Source of the DNA: Bacteriovoracaceae bacterium
Lineage (GTDB): Bacteria > Bdellovibrionota > Bacteriovoracia > Bacteriovoracales > Bacteriovoracaceae
Assembly (NCBI GenBank): GCA_048270185.1
Contig: JBLWTJ010000002.1
Location: forward strand, 512,001 to 576,000
DNA length: 64,000 nucleotides
Reading direction: 5' to 3'
Notes under the pieces: generated by a model
The model's database searches: none
Seen by the model: the letters and a program-made list of their open reading frames with translations, nothing else
Told to the model about the DNA's origin: nothing
Position numbers and translations under genes: made by a program
Part shown: piece by piece, positions 14,661 to 46,884 of the stretch
How positions within the stretch are numbered: position 1 is the first letter of the stretch
Layout: each line of letters begins with the position of its first letter

Positions 14661-15517
14661 CGTCTAAAGTTAGCGACAACTTCCATTAAAGAATTTACAT
14701 TACATTGCTTAATCACTTGGATAACTTCAGTTGTTACATTGTAGACCTGACAAGGCAATCTTTCTTCGAGTACAATATTTTGCTCGATAAAATTCTTCGT
14801 AAAATTATTTGAAGTCTGACTATTTAACTTACTCATGCCCAAAATTATTGCTCGATAGAGTCGTTTATTATTTTTTCTTACATAGAGATAGACTGGGTAG
14901 TTGTAGTAAATAAAGTTCTTATTATCCACGAGAAGATTTTGTTTTTGATTGAGGACTTCAATATATGCTTCTGAAACCCCCCTTAAAGTATAATCTGCAC
15001 TTCCATTATTTAATGCATGATAAATTCCTGAAAATGAATCCACTGCCACTAATTTAAATTTACTCTTTTTTAAAATTTTAAAATCTCTCCAATTTCTATT
15101 AAATGAAACTCGTAATTTCTTATAGTCTGCGGCTCCCTTTATTCCCTCAATCATCTGTCTGTTCTTATATTCATAAACAGGCAAACGCAGCCCTAGAAGT
15201 CCCGAAAGAATAGGAGCCTCAACTCTCCTAAAGTCAGTTAGATCCCAATTCTCAGAAGGAGAATAGAGAATATCTCCTTTTAGATAACTACCATTTTCGA
15301 CACATTCTTTTTCACTACCACAATCAAACGGAATGACTTTGAAATCCCCAAATTCATTTCGGGCCAAAGTTAGTACTTCTTCCAAAAAGTAGCGAAAGTA
15401 TTGATGGCGATAATGTCCCTGAATTGTCTTAATCTCAAACTCTTCAACCTCTTGAGCACTAATACCTAGAGGGAATAACAAGACAATAAATATTAAGTTC
15501 TTTATAAAGCGGCCCAT
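14657..15517 (-). CDS. Periplasmic substrate-binding-protein-like (type 2 fold)
   Basis: Signal peptide; PILSGLLGLRL, WRDFKIL, ADYTLRGVSE and YNYPVYLYV patterns typical of orphan ABC/PBP2 proteins. Confidence 0.6.
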   Translation of the reverse strand: MGRFIKNLIFIVLLFPLGISAQEVEEFEIKTIQGHYRHQYFRYFLEEVLTLARNEFGDFKVIPFDCGSEKECVENGSYLKGDILYSPSENWDLTDFRRVEAPILSGLLGLRLPVYEYKNRQMIEGIKGAADYKKLRVSFNRNWRDFKILKKSKFKLVAVDSFSGIYHALNNGSADYTLRGVSEAYIEVLNQKQNLLVDNKNFIYYNYPVYLYVRKNNKRLYRAIILGMSKLNSQTSNNFTKNFIEQNIVLEERLPCQVYNVTTEVIQVIKQCNVNSLMEVVANFRR

Positions 15518-15649: not shown

Positions 15650-16426
15650 GTGCAATATAATATTGAGGAGTTTAAGTTGCCAGTTAAATCAGATGCTCAA
15701 CAAGCTAGTAATGACCCATTTGCGTATAAACAAGACCAAGATAAGTCTTTTTCAGAAGGTTTTGAATATAAGCATAAGAACCCTTACCACGACAAGCTAA
15801 CTGAATTTAGTGAATTCGTTCTTCGTGACGATGAAGCAGAAGTTCACCGCGGGAAGTGGAATGAGGAAGTCTTTAAGACAGATGGTGAGCTATGTCTTGA
15901 GATTGGTTCAGGATATGGCCACTTCATGCTGCAATATTGTGATGCTTATCGCGACCAAAATTTTGTTGGCCTAGACTACCGCTTTAAGCGTAGCTATGCG
16001 CTTGCGAAGAAATTAAAATCACTTCCATATCGCAATTTTAAATACTTAAGAGCGAAGGGAGAACGAATTGAACATCTCTTTGCTGAAAACGAGCTAGATA
16101 AGGTATTCTACTTCTTCCCTGATCCTTGGCCAAAGGCCCGTCATCATAAGAAGAGACTCTTCCAGCTTCCATTCTTAGAGAGGGCATACAAAGTTATCAA
16201 GCCAGGTGGATACTTCTTCGTTAAGACGGATCACGATGGTTACGCTGAGTGGATGAAGGAAGTAATTGAAAAACAAGATCTTTTTGAGCTAGAGCTTGAA
16301 ACAAAGGACTTGTGGAATGACGCTCCAGACCACCTACTTTGCCAGTTTAAGACTAAGTTTGAGAAAATATTTATCGAGCAAGGTGTAAATATTAAAGCTT
16401 TTGTTCTAAAATCCAAAAAAGCATAA
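15650..16426 (+). CDS. trmB: tRNA (guanine-N7)-methyltransferase
   Basis: LEIGSGYG, FPDPWPKARHHKKRL and KTD motifs. The true start may be TTG 15677 after GAGGAG. Confidence 0.93.
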   Translation: MQYNIEEFKLPVKSDAQQASNDPFAYKQDQDKSFSEGFEYKHKNPYHDKLTEFSEFVLRDDEAEVHRGKWNEEVFKTDGELCLEIGSGYGHFMLQYCDAYRDQNFVGLDYRFKRSYALAKKLKSLPYRNFKYLRAKGERIEHLFAENELDKVFYFFPDPWPKARHHKKRLFQLPFLERAYKVIKPGGYFFVKTDHDGYAEWMKEVIEKQDLFELELETKDLWNDAPDHLLCQFKTKFEKIFIEQGVNIKAFVLKSKKA

Positions 16427-16447
16427 TAAATAAGGTAAGCCTCTTAG

Positions 16448-18331
16448 ATGTCACTACAGCAATTGCGCGAAAAAATCGTCAGTGAAATCCCGATTTCTGA
16501 TTTAATCGAGCGCTATGGTGTGCACTTAGTTCACAAGGGTAATCGTATTACGACGATTTGTCCTTTTCACGATGACACCAATCCATCAATGCACGTCAAT
16601 AATGACTACGGAAATTATAAATGCTTTGCCTGTGGTGCCGGTGGCTCTCACTTTGACTTTGTTATGAATCTCCACACACTCGAGTTTGTCGATGCCTTAA
16701 GAGATATTTGTGAAAAATTTGGTATTAATTTTGATGCCTATACAAGCAAAAGAAATAAACCTAAGAAAGAAATCTTTGCGGAAAAGATTCTAAAAGTTGC
16801 AAGCGCTATATATTATAAGTACGGTCAGGACACAAAGCCTGCCGCCTATCTCGATTTCTTAAAAAATCGAAATATGAAAGAAGAGCTGGCCGAGCTCTAT
16901 CAAATTGGTTTTGCACCAAAGCAAAATAGTATTTACGACTATATCCACACTCTTCCGGAAGAAGACCGTGAAGAAATCCTAAAGACTGCCATTGAAATTG
17001 GAATCGTTAAGTATAATCCAGAAAATAAGTCCCATTATGATACTTATCGCGAACGCGTTATGTTTCCTATCTGGGATCACTATGGCCGTGTGATCGGCTT
17101 TACTGGACGACGAATACGCGATGAACAATATGGTAAGTATGTGAATTCAAAGGGATCGTTCATCTTTAACAAGAGTAACCTCCTTTATGGCCTTCATCTT
17201 GCAAAATCCTATATTAGAAAACGCGATAGCGTTATTATAGTCGAAGGAAATATGGATCAGGTTGCAACGTTTAAGAAAGGATTCGAGAACTCAGTTGCCA
17301 TCATGGGAACGGCCCTTGGTGATAATTCCCTGCGCGTCCTTAAGGCCTTAACGAAGAATATTTACTTGGCCCTTGATAATGATGAGGCCGGCTATAAAGC
17401 CGCCCAGAGGACAAGTCAGCAATTCTTAGAGTATGGAATTCTGGCCAAGTACGTTAACCTTGCTCCACACAAAGACCCTGATGACTTCTTAGAAGCAGAA
17501 GGAATCATAGCTTTTCAAGAGCGCATTGATAATGCACCAGCTTTTATTGACTATGAACTCGATCAACTTATACCTCAAAGACCAATTGAGCTAATTGACG
17601 AGAAGCTCTCAATCCTTGATCAAGCATTTGAAGTGGTTGCACCACTTAAGAACGATATCAATGCCACAGAGAGACTCTTGGCCCTGGCACCAAAGCTTAA
17701 GTTAAACTCTAGTAACGAACAGATTAATACACGTTATGAAAATTTCTTAAAAGGAGTTAAGAAACCAGCTGCTAAACCAGTTCAAAAAGAAGTTATTCAA
17801 GAAGATTTTAATATGCCAGAGTACGATGAGAGTTACATGGCAAGTTTTGTTGAATCTGATGCAAACCAGATGCCAACTATTGAAGAAATTGCGCCTCAAA
17901 TCTCAAAAACAGAAGAGACTCTTCTCCTCTCAATCATTGAACATCCGGAATGTCTTGAGTATGATGAAATGACCGATCTGCTTGATTTTATGCAGTCAGA
18001 TGGGGTAAAAGAATATATTTTGAATCTTAGAAAATTAATCTTTGAAATCGATGAGAGGGAATTTAAAAACTTTGCACTTTCGAGTTCTTCCAAATATGGC
18101 CTTGAAGAAATTATAAAAAAAGGCATTATAAAAAATAAAGGAATCCAACTAGAAAAAGAGAAAGCTGTAAAAATCATTAGTGACCTCGCAAAAATTCTCA
18201 AGCAACAAAGCTTTAAAGACGAAAAGAAATCTTTGAGGCAGAAAATGTCTTCGGTTAAAACTGAAGATGAGTTGAAAGAGATTATGAAACAGATTCACGA
18301 CATAGAAAAAAAGCTATTAGCTTTAAAGTAA
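16448..18331 (+). CDS. dnaG: DNA primase
   Basis: CPFHDD...CFAC zinc finger, RVMFPI, KYVNS, TOPRIM VEGNMD, ALDNDEAG and KDPDD. Confidence 0.97.
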   Translation: MSLQQLREKIVSEIPISDLIERYGVHLVHKGNRITTICPFHDDTNPSMHVNNDYGNYKCFACGAGGSHFDFVMNLHTLEFVDALRDICEKFGINFDAYTSKRNKPKKEIFAEKILKVASAIYYKYGQDTKPAAYLDFLKNRNMKEELAELYQIGFAPKQNSIYDYIHTLPEEDREEILKTAIEIGIVKYNPENKSHYDTYRERVMFPIWDHYGRVIGFTGRRIRDEQYGKYVNSKGSFIFNKSNLLYGLHLAKSYIRKRDSVIIVEGNMDQVATFKKGFENSVAIMGTALGDNSLRVLKALTKNIYLALDNDEAGYKAAQRTSQQFLEYGILAKYVNLAPHKDPDDFLEAEGIIAFQERIDNAPAFIDYELDQLIPQRPIELIDEKLSILDQAFEVVAPLKNDINATERLLALAPKLKLNSSNEQINTRYENFLKGVKKPAAKPVQKEVIQEDFNMPEYDESYMASFVESDANQMPTIEEIAPQISKTEETLLLSIIEHPECLEYDEMTDLLDFMQSDGVKEYILNLRKLIFEIDEREFKNFALSSSSKYGLEEIIKKGIIKNKGIQLEKEKAVKIISDLAKILKQQSFKDEKKSLRQKMSSVKTEDELKEIMKQIHDIEKKLLALK

Positions 18332-44948: not shown

Positions 44949-45401
44949 TTAGTACTCAGGAATTCTAGCTCGACGCCCACCTGGCCAACGAGAAGAGTTT
45001 GTCACTAATTTGCTAAAGATTTCTTGGCCAGCTAAGTCCGCCATTCGGAACATGCTGACAGGAAGTCTTTCTTGAAAAACCTTCTTTGTTTTTAAGATCG
45101 AATCGTCGTGTGAAACTTCAAATGAACTAAATTCGAAGAGTGTCACACTCCCCTGCCTAATCATATAATTTAAATAGCGACTGAGTAATTTATTATAATT
45201 AACAAATGAACGAATATCGCGAACACATGCAATAATGAATTGATGTTCACGCATACGAATTGACTTGAAGTCATCAAGTTTCATTGGAACAAGTTTCATC
45301 CCAAATTCATTAAAGACACGAGACATGTAGAGGAAGTCTTTCCCTAGGCTCTTTTCAAATTGTAAATAGATGACGTAATTCGATGTTCTCACATAGAACA
45401 T
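44949..45401 (-). CDS. Hypothetical protein
   Basis: 150-aa ORF ending WPGGRRARIPEY; start position uncertain. Confidence 0.65.
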   Translation of the reverse strand: MFYVRTSNYVIYLQFEKSLGKDFLYMSRVFNEFGMKLVPMKLDDFKSIRMREHQFIIACVRDIRSFVNYNKLLSRYLNYMIRQGSVTLFEFSSFEVSHDDSILKTKKVFQERLPVSMFRMADLAGQEIFSKLVTNSSRWPGGRRARIPEY

Positions 45402-45475
45402 TTCGGCATTGTTATTTGTTTAATGAAGGGATGAATGTGTTTTGGGAAAACTTTACCGGTTAGAATAGAAGTTCA

Positions 45476-45909
45476 AAGGCCTTCACCTGACCTCCCATAC
45501 TGGTCGGTCGGCGTTTCTCGTCGTCATTTTGCCATCGTGGCAAATGCCGCCTTAAAAAGAAAGGCCGAGAGGACAACTTTAATACCACACACGTCACTCT
45601 CGGCCTCTTAAGCTTTGGATTAAATCATAGGGAGAGAGGGATGTATCTCCAAAGCTTTATAACTTCCATGTTTCTCTTGCGTCCATCCGTGGACACAGTT
45701 AAATCTTTTTTTAGAAAGGGGCCTAGAGGGGGATTAGTGCTAAAGCATCGTGCTTTCTACAATTCTGTGGCCCCATTCCTCTAGGCCCTTTTATCCTGCA
45801 AATAACCTTAAATTCCTAAGTGTTACTCACAGTAACCATCGCAACGTCCTATTGCTGATTTTCCAAAAACGTCCTATTTTTGGAGAGGCTCCCTGGCCCC
45901 TTGGTTACT
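45476..45909 (-). ncRNA. Candidate sigma54-dependent multi-hairpin sRNA with GGA loops (CsrB/RsmZ-like)
   Basis: No ORF in the supplied track, GC-richer than the flanks, at least 11 hairpins. Loops include CAGGGA, AGGAC (twice), GGAAUU, ACGGAU and AUGGAA. A sigma54 promoter lies immediately upstream. The 3' end is either about 45554 (stem plus U-tract) or about 45476. Confidence 0.7.
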
Positions 45910-45917
45910 ATCTATAA

Positions 45918-45933
45918 AGCAGGATGCGTGCCA
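45918..45933 (-). promoter_or_regulatory. sigma54 (-24/-12) promoter
   Basis: TGGCACGCATCCTGCT, an exact GG-N10-GC; predicted +1 near 45907. Confidence 0.8.
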
Positions 45934-45950
45934 AAATTGCTTAATAATAG

Positions 45951-45963
45951 ATTCAATAACTTA
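45951..45963. promoter_or_regulatory. IHF-like site
   Basis: ATTCAATAACTTA against WATCAANNNNTTR (one mismatch), about -45 to -57 from the predicted TSS. Confidence 0.5.
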
Positions 45964-46058
45964 CAAAAAATTGACAAAGAAATGTCCAAAACGCCCCACA
46001 GGCCGCGCCAAAGAATGTTAAGTGGTCCTACAAAAACAGCCACTTAGCGTAGGACCAA

Positions 46059-46088
46059 AAAGGAACTAATACTTGAGTAGTTTCCTTT
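46059..46088 (-). terminator. Probable lepB terminator
   Basis: Minus strand AAAGGAAACTA-N9-TAGTTCCTTT followed by TT. Confidence 0.45.
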
Positions 46089-46119
46089 CTGGCCCCATAG
46101 AAAAATTATTTGATGATAC

Positions 46120-46884
46120 TTAGAGAGATTTTCCGATTCGTGATGGCCTGAAGTGGAATGGTTTATCTGACCATGGGTAAACTAATGACATCCAAACCAT
46201 GAATGCCTTTCCACGAATATTCTTGATAGGAACAAAGCCCCAAACACGTGAATCACTTGAGTAGTCACGGTTATCACCCATTACAAAAACGTGATCAGCA
46301 GGAACAGTGACTTTATCTTGATTTAGGTGTCTAAAGAAAGTTGGATTCTCACCAATCGTAAATTCCTTATCCCCTAATTTTTGACGATAGAATTTTAAGT
46401 CTTCTGGATTAAGTGTTGGCTCCTTATCATAGAGAGAGCGAAGTTCTTTATCTTCCTCTGCACTTACTTCTTCTTTCTTCACTTCCTCACCATTGATGAA
46501 TAATTTATTTTCATAAACTTCTACGGTATCCCCAGGTACGGCAATAGTTCTCTTAACATAGAGAATTGCCGGATTGATTGGGTATTCGAAAACAACAATA
46601 TCACCTCTTTTAGGAGCTGATTGTGATCCAAAATAAATAGGATTAAAAAATTCAGTAAAAGGAACTTTTAGGCCATATGACATTTTATTAACGACAATAG
46701 AGTCACCAATAGCATTTGTCGGAAGAAGAGATCCTGTTGGAATATGGTAGTGATCGATGAAAGTTGATCTGAAACCAAAGACAATTAAAATGATTTTGAT
46801 CCAAGAAAGTGCTTCATCTTTGAACCACTGCCCAGATAGAAAAGCAGGCTTTGGAGCCTCTACTTTTGGTGCTTTATTAAACAT
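46120..46884 (-). CDS. lepB: Signal peptidase I
   Basis: IPTGSLLPT (catalytic Ser), YVKR (catalytic Lys), GDNRDYSSDSR.WGFV. Confidence 0.95.
   Translation of the reverse strand: MFNKAPKVEAPKPAFLSGQWFKDEALSWIKIILIVFGFRSTFIDHYHIPTGSLLPTNAIGDSIVVNKMSYGLKVPFTEFFNPIYFGSQSAPKRGDIVVFEYPINPAILYVKRTIAVPGDTVEVYENKLFINGEEVKKEEVSAEEDKELRSLYDKEPTLNPEDLKFYRQKLGDKEFTIGENPTFFRHLNQDKVTVPADHVFVMGDNRDYSSDSRVWGFVPIKNIRGKAFMVWMSLVYPWSDKPFHFRPSRIGKSL

Follow-up and report, generated by a model that had tools for sequence, protein, structure and literature searches.

Stand-alone RNAs that act as sponges for CsrA have been described for Gammaproteobacteria, where they are under GacA/UvrY control. Does a locus of Halobacteriovorax, a marine predator of the Bdellovibrionota, encode an RNA of this kind, and how would such an RNA fit with FliW, the protein antagonist of CsrA? 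The question arises from a sequence-only reading of a 64,000-nt stretch of DNA (hereafter the window), which proposed a sigma-54-driven CsrA sponge at 45476..45909 on the minus strand and placed it, correctly as to lineage, outside the Gammaproteobacteria. For species whose CsrA is partnered by FliW no RNA antagonist has come to light, and according to a review the two mechanisms have so far excluded each other (PMC7366521). We examined the limits, conservation, promoter and motifs of the locus together with the gene content of its genome, and we weigh below what kind of RNA it may be.

A discrete minus-strand RNA closed by a terminator

Judged from its sequence, the locus is a stand-alone, discrete and structured non-coding RNA of about 354 nt on the minus strand, running from a predicted start at 45907 to the end of the U run of its terminator at 45554. 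Every hairpin named by the sequence-only reading was found where it had been placed, and the minimum-energy fold gives the same hairpins; the proposed closing stem (45909-45902 with 45838-45831), the CUUA-GGAAUU-UAAG hairpin (45820-45807) and the CAGGAUA stretch (45798-45792) are present as well. The folding energy is -121.7 kcal/mol (z -4.84) for the minus strand and -107.6 kcal/mol (z -3.98) for the plus strand, and the fold z-score of the RNA was -5.9 and -4.8 in two computations. G-U pairs favour the minus strand, as had been said, and the compensatory changes described below are likewise specific to it.

The intrinsic terminator (45554..45607, minus strand) consists of an 11-bp G+C-rich stem with an inner extension, followed by the U run; it was absent from a simple terminator scan because its loop exceeds the limit of that scan. 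In the alignment, conservation among relatives breaks off right after it, which sets the 3' limit at about 45554. The proposed minus-strand non-coding RNA thus stands, and its extension to 45476 does not: the 3' quarter of the interval 45476..45909 is a separate dispersed repeat of about 75 nt (45478..45553, minus strand) that lies outside the RNA family and is inserted just after the terminator. This repeat has five other copies in the same genome, occurs in only 6 of the 13 genomes of the genus and never sits at the RNA locus in the others. The hairpin GACC-AGUAUGGGA-GGUC (45489-45505) was rejected as a part of the RNA since it lies within the repeat.

Contigs from two RNA libraries of one study, which are unstranded, span only 45540-45898 within 45200-46300. 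The flanks (45200-45532 and 45903-46300) carry no contig in runs X4 and X5, lack of coverage not being evidence of silence, and the same holds for a third library (run X12), which gave no contig anywhere on the 45200-46300 stretch. The 3' end of the contigs sits at the edge of the repeat, and repeats can break assemblies.

Homologues and covariation

Each of the 13 genomes of the genus has a homologue, and so does one other genus, which makes 14 of 237 genomes of the family; five full-length relatives share 80-82% identity with the RNA. Covariation among homologues had been proposed as a check on the hairpin stems, and the stems do covary. The 3' domain is 90.6% paired and shows changes on both sides in 24 of 27 pairs. 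On four of five measures none of 500 shuffles attains the observed values, and slid controls are 33-53% paired. In an unfitted MAFFT alignment, the 5' and central helices are 96.1% paired (11/28 pairs changed on both sides), and in the terminator helix, which is 98.3% paired, all ten of ten pairs have changed on both sides. A long central hairpin (45719..45788, minus strand; 95% paired, 4/14 pairs changed on both sides) is followed by a U-rich run, and together they possibly form an internal terminator. This hairpin is about 100 nt longer in other clades.

No Rfam family matches the RNA, an outcome that the sequence-only reading had named as favouring novelty. At gathering scores the whole window gave no match, CsrB, CsrC, RsmX, RsmY and PrrB_RsmZ included, and at E values up to 10 the interval 45200-46200 gave only four unrelated plus-strand chance matches. 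Of four weak matches of the RNA model in other genera, three were mRNA leaders or coding sequence and were set aside, as were three extra matches to a two-motif pattern, all of them coding sequence. A scan of metagenomes with this pattern returned at least 119 stretches; among the 80 loci that were fetched none matched the RNA model (E up to 0.01), and the pattern was too loose for that metagenome collection. The suggestion that the RNA is new to print agrees with our finding no description of it for the Bdellovibrionota group, for which a prior computational prediction in Halobacteriovorax may nevertheless exist; the main text of the InvenireSRNA predictions names no Bdellovibrio or Bacteriovorax (PMC5568370).

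Hairpin loops of the CsrA type

The GGA-bearing hairpins, all on the minus strand, differ in how well they are kept. H1 (45885..45900; loop CAGGGA) has a helix that is 94% paired, with 2 of 5 pairs changed on both sides; its loop GGA is present in the RNA of the window and in more distant clades and is lost in four of the six closest sequences. H2 (45863..45883; loop (U)AGGAC(G)) is 98.9% paired with 5/9 pairs changed on both sides, and its loop, UAGGA(C/U)G, is unchanged across ten aligned sequences. H3 (45841..45855; GCAAU-AGGAC-GUUGC) is invariant in the six closest sequences and is replaced in other clades by hairpins with CAGGA(U/A)G- or AUGGAUG-type loops. Towards the 3' end, P5 (45679..45696; GUGUCC-ACGGAU-GGACGC) carries a loop that matches CANGGANG on a covarying helix; it reads CCA(C/U)GGA(U/A)GG in 14/14 homologues, with UCACGGAAGA in the other genus. 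P6 (45661..45672; AAC-AUGGAA-GUU) is a weak hairpin with ACA(N)GGA(A/U)GU whose helix belongs to the 3'-domain alignment; all 13 genomes of the genus have it, and the RNA of the other genus carries UCAAGGAUGA elsewhere. The earlier statement that loops are conserved and stems differ therefore holds for H2, P5, P6 and the H3-type hairpins. It fails for H1 and for CUUA-GGAAUU-UAAG, whose GGA is lost in 5/6 closest sequences (the RNA of the window and its five nearest relatives).

The claim that the RNA is rich in GGA divides in the same way. The plain count is 11 in the 354-nt RNA (12 had been counted before), and dinucleotide shuffles, with 8.0 +/- 2.0, reach it in 108 of 1000 cases, so GGA as such is not enriched. 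GGA in hairpin loops is enriched: there are eight, compared with 1.8 +/- 1.3 in shuffles, none of 1000 of which reaches eight, and seven GGAs of the RNA have an unpaired probability above 0.5. Ranked by hairpin-loop GGA, the locus comes first among the non-coding loci of the genome and second overall, the other six of the top seven sitting in open frames of 142-217 aa. Individual homologues carry 2-8 hairpin GGAs (n=14), which is above shuffles at the 5% level in nine and within the shuffle range (79-180 of 1000) in the other five.

Strict matches to CANGGANG are more uniform, with 2-4 per RNA in all 14 homologues where 0.02-0.05 are expected. Two of these loops persist in every homologue, and additional A(N)GGA hairpins appear in some RNAs and not in others. 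Of the proposed multi-site sponge, about four sites in all are conserved across the family, only two of them strict; the homologue of the other genus has two hairpin GGAs in the approximately 170 nt counted, its terminator end left out. Neighbouring GGA sites are 10-40 nt apart. Loops that bind CsrA with high affinity follow the consensus CANGGANG or CAGGA(N)G, and the context conserved around GGA here (C at -3, A at -2, G at +2) matches the CsrA/RsmE consensus. On the strength of these motifs, the RNA probably binds and sequesters CsrA, whose sites are characterised in a review as 'short hairpins exposing unpaired ANGGA' (PMC7366521). Large portions of the RNA, among them the central hairpin and a CU-rich loop, are unrelated to GGA.

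A sigma-54 promoter with conserved upstream motifs

The sigma-54 promoter of the sequence-only reading is present as TGGCAC-N5-CTGC (45918..45933, minus strand; GG at 45932-31, GC at 45920-19), with a predicted start at about 45906-45909. It is kept in 14/14 homologues as TGGCA(C/T)-N5-NNGC, at a fixed distance to H1. The genome has rpoN (212 bits in a profile search) and about eight enhancer-binding proteins, counted from eight Sigma54_activat matches with E below 1e-19. A sigma-70 promoter with a GacA/UvrY box was not found at the locus, where the promoter is of the sigma-54 type GG-N10-GC; a TGTAAG is conserved upstream in the clade of the window, and the second half of the palindrome is missing.

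Further upstream, a distal motif, GGTCCTAC (46049..46056, minus strand), and a proximal one, GTAGGACC (46024..46031, minus strand), form the arms of an inverted pair 17 bases apart. This (G/A)TAGGACC pair, a candidate site for an enhancer-binding protein, lies upstream of the promoter in 13/13 genomes of the genus, with TTTTGACAC motifs upstream in three clades. The GTAGGACC pair occurs nowhere else in the genome, which has ten single occurrences of the motif in all. The promoter type and the conserved motifs together imply control by an enhancer-binding protein. No gene for such a protein is found near the RNA, the nearest being about 68 kb away and outside the window. The TAGGAC within the (G/A)TAGGACC motif of the DNA recurs in the H2 and H3 loops.

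An invariant CU-rich loop and its candidate target

The most conserved element of the RNA is the 16-base CU-rich loop ACAUCCCUCUCUCCCU (45629..45644, minus strand), the only 16-nt stretch that is identical in 13/13 genomes of the genus; its core, CCCUCUCUCCC, is kept in the other genus. The loop is carried by hairpin P7 (45610..45657, minus strand), whose stem, AAGCUUUGG/CCAAAGCUU in the window, shows changes on both sides in 7 of 8 pairs and takes four different sequences across clades, being wholly replaced while the loop stays. The sequence-only reading had passed over this element. Anti-Shine-Dalgarno-like and complementary to a purine-rich ribosome-binding region, the loop is a candidate base-pairing seed, and its invariance suggests that base pairing is a further function of the RNA or an alternative one. 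Other bacteria have C/U-rich loops that work independently of Hfq, and Hfq was not found in this genome.

The best of 9758 start regions is that of a gene for a trypsin-like lipoprotein (protease), at -23.9 kcal/mol; the gene starts at 476346 on the minus strand of contig C2. Leaders of its orthologues gave -26.1, -23.1, -22.3, -19.1, -18.6, -17.4, -17.4, -17.0, -16.7 and -16.2 kcal/mol, and the duplex null has a mean of -10.0 and an sd of 3.2; among 2500 null windows, 0, 4, 21, 54 and 66 reach -26.1, -22.3, -19.1, -17.4 and -17.0, respectively. Complementarity to the protease leader was seen in 11/11 genomes examined, at about two sd or more from the null mean, for a target that was picked post hoc and in orthologues which, being kin, are not independent tests. 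In one clade the complementary site forms a conserved element of its own, 45-90 nt ahead of the start codon, and in two clades it is simply a strong Shine-Dalgarno sequence. The genome holds no perfect trans target of the loop. Outside the genus, matches to the CU motif with one mismatch were discarded, as they are about as frequent as those of a reversed control and no homologue was found at the 21 loci checked. The RNA may also pair with mRNAs through its CU loop, a function that we put forward less firmly than the titration of CsrA.

CsrA and FliW in the same genome

The genome does have the csrA homologue that a CsrA sponge supposes, in a single copy of 77 aa (91.3 bits), and R6, R44, E46 and N55 are in place when its sequence is read by eye. 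The gene sits inside flgK-flgL-csrA-fliW, from which we take this CsrA to be FliW-partnered. The sequence-only reading had set an RNA antagonist against FliW; with fliW adjoining csrA this opposition falls, and the RNA would add to FliW and not replace it. csrA occurs in 120 of 121 genomes of the family and does not discriminate those that bear the RNA. Set beside this near-universal gene, the RNA, with 14 of 237 family genomes, is rare, and most relatives manage without a recognisable copy. The flagellin leaders of the same genome have a hairpin GGA and a GGA in the Shine-Dalgarno region, and the CsrA of Bdellovibrio bacteriovorus is reported to repress the GGA-hairpin leader of B. subtilis hag, in work that used a B. 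subtilis csrA fliW double mutant with a foreign CsrA (PMC13443453).

A possible mechanism and its alternatives

We judge the chances to be even that the locus makes a CsrA-titrating RNA under sigma-54 and enhancer control, possibly with a second, base-pairing function. Under this reading, an activated enhancer-binding protein would cause the RNA to accumulate, dimers of the single CsrA would bind pairs of its GGA loops, and less CsrA would be free to act as a repressor on leaders with GGA, those of the flagellin genes for example. The RNA would then be a second, signal-controlled antagonist of CsrA on top of the flagellin-FliW partner switch. Its CU loop would pair with purine-rich ribosome-binding or leader regions, the best candidate being the trypsin-like lipoprotein gene, and the transcript would have a dual function, as a sponge for a protein and as a repressor that acts by base pairing. 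We offer only tentatively, and consider rather improbable as a whole, the fuller picture in which a FliW-partnered CsrA is under two antagonists and the RNA also silences mRNAs, for example that of the secreted trypsin-like protease, so that one signal re-programmes translation between the hunting and the growth phase.

The same elements could be given other weights. The RNA might be a base-pairing small RNA only, its CU loop a seed that blocks ribosome-binding regions and its GGA hairpins either client sites of CsrA, helping stability or pairing, or structural parts. This would suit a loop that is identical in all 13 genomes of the genus and shown on a fully covarying stem, a complementarity to the protease leader that recurs in 11/11 genomes, GGA hairpins that are few and variable in number, and a genome in which no Hfq was found, given the Hfq-free C/U-rich loops known elsewhere. 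However, the two strict CANGGANG loops match the CU loop in conservation, and a pure seed RNA would have no need of them or of extra A(N)GGA hairpins that turn over; the genome has no perfect trans target, the target was chosen post hoc, and a strong Shine-Dalgarno sequence accounts for part of the complementarity. We hold this account to be possible and, on balance, doubtful. It is unlikely, in our estimate, that the RNA is a structured one for another protein or role whose likeness to CsrA sites is coincidence or Shine-Dalgarno mimicry. GGA loops do look like Shine-Dalgarno sequences too, TAGGAC is common to the upstream motif and the H2/H3 loops, and a conserved protein of 147-150 aa and of no known family has its gene close to the RNA in four clades as well as the other genus. 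Yet the RNA is not always present where that neighbour occurs, the bases conserved next to GGA fit the CsrA/RsmE consensus, and csrA is there in single copy.

Two readings would tie the locus to protein-coding genes, and together we regard them as very improbable: the RNA as a long leader of the downstream 150-aa gene, or as an mRNA for a small protein from a Shine-Dalgarno-plus-AUG at the base of the central hairpin. The 150-aa gene does lie downstream on the same strand in most genomes, and in one relative an RNA-library contig joins the 3' part of the RNA to the start of this gene, but a strong covarying terminator closes the RNA, other genes intervene in two genomes, and the contigs of the window's own sequence end before the gene; we therefore consider the long leader unlikely. 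No useful Pfam or NCBIfam family was found for the neighbours of the RNA, and in the ESM Atlas the 150-aa protein falls into unnamed clusters only. As for a small protein, a frame of 53-68 aa starts from a conserved AAGGAG-N-AUG in six genomes, and in a seventh the same AUG follows a slightly different Shine-Dalgarno sequence. It was rejected, since changes fall evenly over codon positions (16/16/12, 26/24/28, 34/31/30), changed codons are mostly non-synonymous, and the frame is missing from the clade of the window and from the other genus. A conserved open reading frame from the AUG at P6 was likewise discarded, the frame being different in the nearest relatives when the alignment is read by eye. 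It is highly improbable, finally, that there is no functional transcript at all and that the locus is conserved intergenic DNA such as a regulatory region. The direct RNA evidence does consist of the unstranded contigs of one study, but these fit the predicted span, promoter and terminator come in the right order, and it is the minus strand alone that the compensatory changes and G-U pairs fit.

Significance and comparison with known systems

Should the two-antagonist reading be true, the locus would encode the first CsrA RNA antagonist in a FliW lineage and outside the Gammaproteobacteria, and the first under sigma-54. If the RNA binds CsrA, the picture of either sponge or FliW breaks, CsrA becomes tied to an enhancer-binding-protein signal in the life cycle of a predator, and sponge RNAs would have arisen independently with a different promoter logic. 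If the CU loop alone acts, this would still be the first defined small-RNA regulon candidate in the family. The locus is in any case a concrete candidate that is cheap to test, with a conserved RNA, textbook CsrA loops, a sigma-54 promoter of its own and 14 natural variants.

Among known systems, CsrB/CsrC and RsmX/RsmY/RsmZ are alike in being stand-alone RNAs with an intrinsic terminator in genomes that have csrA, in their repeated hairpins with A(N)GGA, CAGGA(N)G or CANGGANG loops, in variable stems and a turnover of site number between relatives, and in a transcription set by a signal-transduction regulator. They differ in control, having a sigma-70 promoter and a GacA/UvrY box where the Halobacteriovorax RNA has sigma-54 and upstream motifs of its own. 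The latter also has 2-8 sites in 170-440 nt, a lower density than that of CsrB or RsmZ, an extra invariant CU loop and no Rfam match; its host belongs to the Bdellovibrionota and has a FliW-partnered CsrA, whose binding is read here from motifs.

The promoter recalls CrcZ of Pseudomonas and GlmY of Enterobacteria, in which sigma-54 and a dedicated enhancer-binding protein drive an RNA that titrates a protein. These RNAs titrate Hfq/Crc and RapZ through A-rich motifs or a stem-loop mimic, unlike the GGA loops here, and cbrB and glrR adjoin their genes, whereas here no enhancer-binding protein is encoded within about 68 kb. The Qrr small RNAs of Vibrio, too, require sigma-54 together with an enhancer-binding protein, and they switch a life-style programme; they are about 100 nt long, Hfq-dependent and purely base-pairing, and share neither sequence or structure nor an Rfam match with the Halobacteriovorax RNA. 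McaS of E. coli has both GGA sites that CsrA binds and a distinct region for base pairing, as may be the case here, but it is short, Hfq-dependent and controlled by sigma-70 and CRP, whereas no Hfq was found in the present genome and the candidate seed is a C/U-rich hairpin loop.

The closest likeness in the kind of CsrA is to C. jejuni and B. subtilis, where the gene shares an operon with fliW and flagellar genes. There CsrA is bound by the flaA and hag leaders, which combine a hairpin GGA with a Shine-Dalgarno GGA, and the flagellin leaders of Halobacteriovorax look alike. One study presents flaA as a dual-function mRNA in a setting that lacks antagonising small RNAs (PMC4894983). Both flaA and hag are leaders of coding mRNAs under flagellar promoters, whereas the Halobacteriovorax RNA is non-coding and has a sigma-54 promoter of its own.

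Results

The gene upstream of the RNA encodes signal peptidase I (Peptidase_S26, E 1.1e-45), whose nearest named relatives (76-86% identity) come from Halobacteriovorax and 'Bacteriovorax' genomes, marine bacteria of the class Bacteriovoracia (phylum Bdellovibrionota) that prey on other bacteria. This bears out the placement outside the Gammaproteobacteria made in the sequence-only reading, which had proposed a sigma-54-driven, CsrA-sequestering RNA on the minus strand. The hairpins it described are all present on that strand and reappear in a fold of 45553-45912 (-123.1 kcal/mol, z -5.94), and the minus strand folds better than the plus strand by 14 kcal/mol. The promoter was also found, as TGGCAC-N5-CTGC on the minus strand (GG at 45932-31, GC at 45920-19), with a start predicted near 45906-45909; the element is kept in 14/14 copies of the RNA. 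Just after the last conserved hairpin, a G+C-rich stem and U run form a terminator (45607-45554, minus strand), overlooked by a simple terminator scan because its loop is too long for that scan. In five relatives of the same genus (80-82% identity), conservation sets in about 100 bases before the promoter and ends at the terminator, and the next 75 bases are a dispersed repeat; the RNA thus measures about 354 nt, from 45907 to 45554. It is real and conserved, and its 3' end had been over-extended: 45553-45478 is the repeat, never found at this locus in other genomes of the genus, and the GACC-AGUAUGGGA-GGUC hairpin within it is ruled out as part of the RNA.

Diverged copies were recovered by a profile search of fetched loci. 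A pattern of two motifs, the CU-rich loop and the loop of the P5 hairpin, located the RNA in the rest of the genus (12/12 genomes) and in a single genome of another genus. Its matches came from 17 of 237 family genomes (1 for the reversed control) and included three that were discarded as chance occurrences in coding sequence. With R1, a covariance model built on the 3' domain, matches were obtained in 11 of 151 family genomes, seven of them within the genus; the four weak matches comprise one true homologue (the other genus) and three that are not, and R1 aligns all 14 copies. No homologue above chance level was found outside the family, none of 80 loci taken from a metagenome scan matched the covariance model at E up to 0.01, and no Rfam model matches the RNA. 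Copies from the window's clade measure 354-363 nt; those from two other clades reach about 370-444 nt, and the copy from the other genus has about 215 nt.

The 14 copies also supported the structure by covariation. The 3' domain was aligned by fitting to the model structure, which biases the alignment in favour of that structure; 90.6% of its cells are paired, and both sides have changed in 24 of 27 pairs. No shuffle in 500 reached the observed values on four of five measures (6/500 on the fifth), and sliding the partners by 1-3 columns lowered pairing to 33-53%. The terminator helix, with both sides changed in 10/10 pairs, has the strongest covariation support of the helices. In an unfitted MAFFT alignment of ten sequences, H1 (45885-45900), H2 (45863-45883) and the base of the central hairpin (45719-45788) were 96.1% paired, with both sides changed in 11 of 28 pairs (shuffles: 0/500 on three measures, 3/500 on one, 297/500 on one). 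In H2 and other helices the G-U pairs are compatible with the minus strand alone, as had been noticed. The RNA is non-coding: a small-protein reading was rejected, the sole recurring open frame occurring in other clades, with changes spread evenly over codon positions and changed codons mostly non-synonymous. In every clade a U-rich run comes directly after the central hairpin (window 45713-45788; eight U in one relative); it could serve as an internal terminator and produce a short 5' isoform carrying only the variable GGA hairpins.

The sequence-only reading had counted 12 GGAs, about eight of them unpaired; an excess over chance holds for hairpin loops only. The bare count (11 versus 8.0 +/- 2.0 in dinucleotide shuffles, reached by 108/1000) is not beyond chance, whereas eight GGAs lie in hairpin loops (stem of at least 4 pairs, loop of 4-9) versus 1.8 +/- 1.3, a number reached by 0/1000 shuffles. 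A 400-base frame beginning in the RNA holds nine, the ninth being in the repeat. By the same rule the locus ranks second in the genome, both strands included, and the remaining six of the top seven loci lie inside open frames of 142-217 aa, making it the top non-coding locus. Across the 14 copies the counts are 8, 5, 4, 5, 4, 4, 8, 5, 5, 8, 8, 6, 4 and 2, reached by 0 of 1000 shuffles for four RNAs, 10-46 for five and 79-180 for five.

The claim that loops are conserved while stems differ stood for H2, P5, P6 and the H3-type hairpins. All 14 copies have P5 (45679-45696), which reads CCA(C/U)GGA(U/A)GG or else UCACGGAAGA, together with another CANGGANG site, within the genus P6 (45661-45672; ACA(N)GGA(A/U)GU), and the H2 loop UAGGA(C/U)G is constant while its stems are wholly replaced. 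Further 5'-domain hairpins (loops AGGAC, CAGGA(U/A)G or AUGGAUG) vary in number and position by clade. Strict CANGGANG matches number 2-4 per RNA, with 0.02-0.05 expected at the genome's frequency. A longer CsrA consensus and the CsrB repeat are also known. The motifs seen here are those that PMC7366521 gives for CsrA-family binding, 'short hairpins exposing unpaired ANGGA'. Constant loops, changing stems and turnover of repeated sites are what would be expected of a protein-titrating RNA.

The host genome has one copy of csrA, within flgK-flgL-csrA-fliW (FliW, 126.5 bits). The 77-aa CsrA keeps R6, R44 and E46 and, by comparison with the part of PMC11934962 that ties them to FliW antagonism, N55 and the C-terminal extension. 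According to PMC13443453, the B. subtilis hag leader, which has a GGA hairpin, is repressed by CsrA of Bdellovibrio bacteriovorus, so CsrA of this phylum reads canonical sites. Four flagellin genes of the host outside the window (G000:C5:21414, C5:22508, C4:54993 and C1:750909; G000 is the host genome, C its contigs) have leaders in which one GGA is exposed in a hairpin loop and another lies in the Shine-Dalgarno region, as in the flagellin mRNAs that CsrA represses in FliW-type systems. Hfq was not found in this genome, which is 95.9% complete. All but one of 121 family genomes have csrA (120 of 121), so it does not distinguish RNA-bearing from RNA-less genomes. CsrA-type hairpins also occur in leaders of lipoprotein genes in two other genera, at loci L142 (G419:C54 ~16340-16600, minus strand) and L143 (G343:C48 ~15076-15200, minus strand): one leader has five in about 130 bases (loops AAGGAUG, AAAGGAUU, CAGGAUG, AAGGAUG and AUGGAUG), with a sigma-54-like promoter upstream, and the other has one, behind TTGGCACG-N-TTGT. 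Such leaders may be common in the family.

The genome encodes rpoN and eight strong Sigma54_activat proteins, none within ~68 kb of the RNA. Upstream of the RNA promoter, a pair of (G/A)TAGGACC motifs is present in 13/13 genomes of the genus, inverted and 17 bases apart in the window's clade, direct and 10-11 bases apart in two others; one of these two also has an inverted pair immediately next to the promoter. In three lineages the pairs are flanked by TTTTGACAC motifs. The genome has 30 sigma-54-like promoters and 10 single occurrences of the motif but a pair only here, which suggests a dedicated activator. The motifs (46024-46056) have a TAGGAC core in common with the H2 and H3 loops (AUAGGACG; 45841-45883), which may be coincidence or common recognition. 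Between motifs and promoter lies a block, TTTTTGTAAGTTATTGAATCTA (45941-45967), that shows little or no variation within the window's clade and is conserved there only. The TGTAAG in it resembles half a GacA/UvrY box, the palindromic partner being missing. Two further sigma-54-type promoters of AAAGTTGGCACG...TTGCTTATATATA flavour lie at G000:C1:774851 (minus strand, outside the window) and G000:C1:148559 (plus strand). The former is followed by ~95 bases with no obvious open frame, a terminator and a repeat copy, and may drive a second sigma-54-dependent small RNA.

In two RNA libraries of one study, Logan contigs span 45540-45893 (one contig of 354 bases, with a single difference) and 45565-45898, and nothing else in the 1101 bases of 45200-46300; these spans agree with the predicted RNA. 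A third library gave no contig on the stretch, and a fourth gave one of a relative's copy. The contigs, strandless, from one study and with a 3' end at the repeat edge, are a weak hint of a transcript.

The most conserved element, absent from the sequence-only reading, is the 16-base loop ACAUCCCUCUCUCCCU (45644-45629), identical in 13/13 genomes of the genus and with its core kept in the other genus; the stem around it (P7, 45610-45657) has four unrelated sequences in four lineages. Its complement resembles a strong ribosome-binding site followed by AUG. No perfect trans match exists in the genome. Of 9758 candidate start regions (mean -6.5 kcal/mol, sd 3.5), the one that forms the best duplex, at -23.9, belongs to a lipoprotein gene with Trypsin_2 and PPC domains. 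Orthologue leaders in ten other genomes gave -26.1, -23.1, -22.3, -19.1, -18.6, -17.4, -17.4, -17.0, -16.7 and -16.2; among 2500 null leaders (mean -10.0, sd 3.2), 0, 4, 21, 54 and 66 reached -26.1, -22.3, -19.1, -17.4 and -17.0 or better. In two clades the loop would pair with the Shine-Dalgarno sequence plus the start codon, and in a third with a separate conserved element 45-90 bases upstream. This pairing is suggestive, the target being the best of many, strong Shine-Dalgarno sequences pairing anyway and the orthologues being kin.

The repeat (~75 bases, 45478-45553) folds on the minus strand as a hairpin pair (z -2.9) and has no Rfam match. Five other copies (G000:C1:774660-774729, C3:335137-335207, C2:461555-461625, C2:461681-461740 and C4:54459-54520) complete a set in which each lies immediately 3' of some gene's intrinsic terminator; one copy is interrupted by an insertion. 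It occurs in 6/13 genomes of the genus (1-6 copies each), at the RNA locus only in the window's genome, and could be a mobile element, a small RNA or an insertion-site marker. Further downstream, 44949-45401 (minus strand) encodes a 150-aa protein of no Pfam or NCBIfam family. Its homologues (143-150 aa, 143 in the other genus; L109:1774-2220, L114:889-1332, L149:881-1324 and L144:2617-3048 in relatives' loci) have a conserved C-terminal WPGG(R/K)RA(R/K)(L/I)P and, in four clades and the other genus, follow the RNA either directly or with a gene between; one genome of a further genus has the protein with no RNA upstream.

Discussion

The RNA described here is non-coding, conserved and structured; a sigma-54 promoter precedes it, a terminator ends it, and it displays CsrA-type loops and a CU-rich loop. 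That it titrates CsrA, with or without a second function, we hold to be about an even chance; the putative sponge is well motivated but unproven. An enhancer-binding protein would turn the RNA on, and the RNA would bind CsrA dimers across neighbouring loops, leaving less free CsrA and adding a signal-controlled layer on top of the flagellin-FliW switch. Less firmly, the CU loop might pair with purine-rich leaders, that of the protease gene foremost.

It is unlikely, if worth keeping in mind, that the RNA acts purely by base pairing, perhaps as a client of CsrA; the invariant CU loop would suit such a role. Another partner or role is improbable. That the locus is a leader or mRNA is very doubtful, the one recurring open frame lacking codon-position bias and being absent from the window's clade, and that there is no functional transcript is scarcely credible beside the covariation and the contigs.

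Full-text searches brought up neither this RNA nor any CsrA sponge in Bdellovibrionota; a bare computational prediction (InvenireSRNA) may exist. Eight attack-phase small RNAs without homologues elsewhere are reported for B. bacteriovorus in PMC3627812 (see also PMC3526173). With its FliW context and CU loop, the RNA is more interesting, and more complicated, than was supposed. In protein context it is close to the FliW-CsrA systems of Bacillus and Campylobacter; PMC7366521 and PMC4894983 record no RNA antagonist for such systems. In its proposed working the RNA is like CsrB and RsmZ, and it is not of their families, lacking an Rfam match and having a different promoter logic. Its control is like that of CrcZ, GlmY and Qrr, which combine sigma-54 with a dedicated activator, and its possible double function is like that of McaS.
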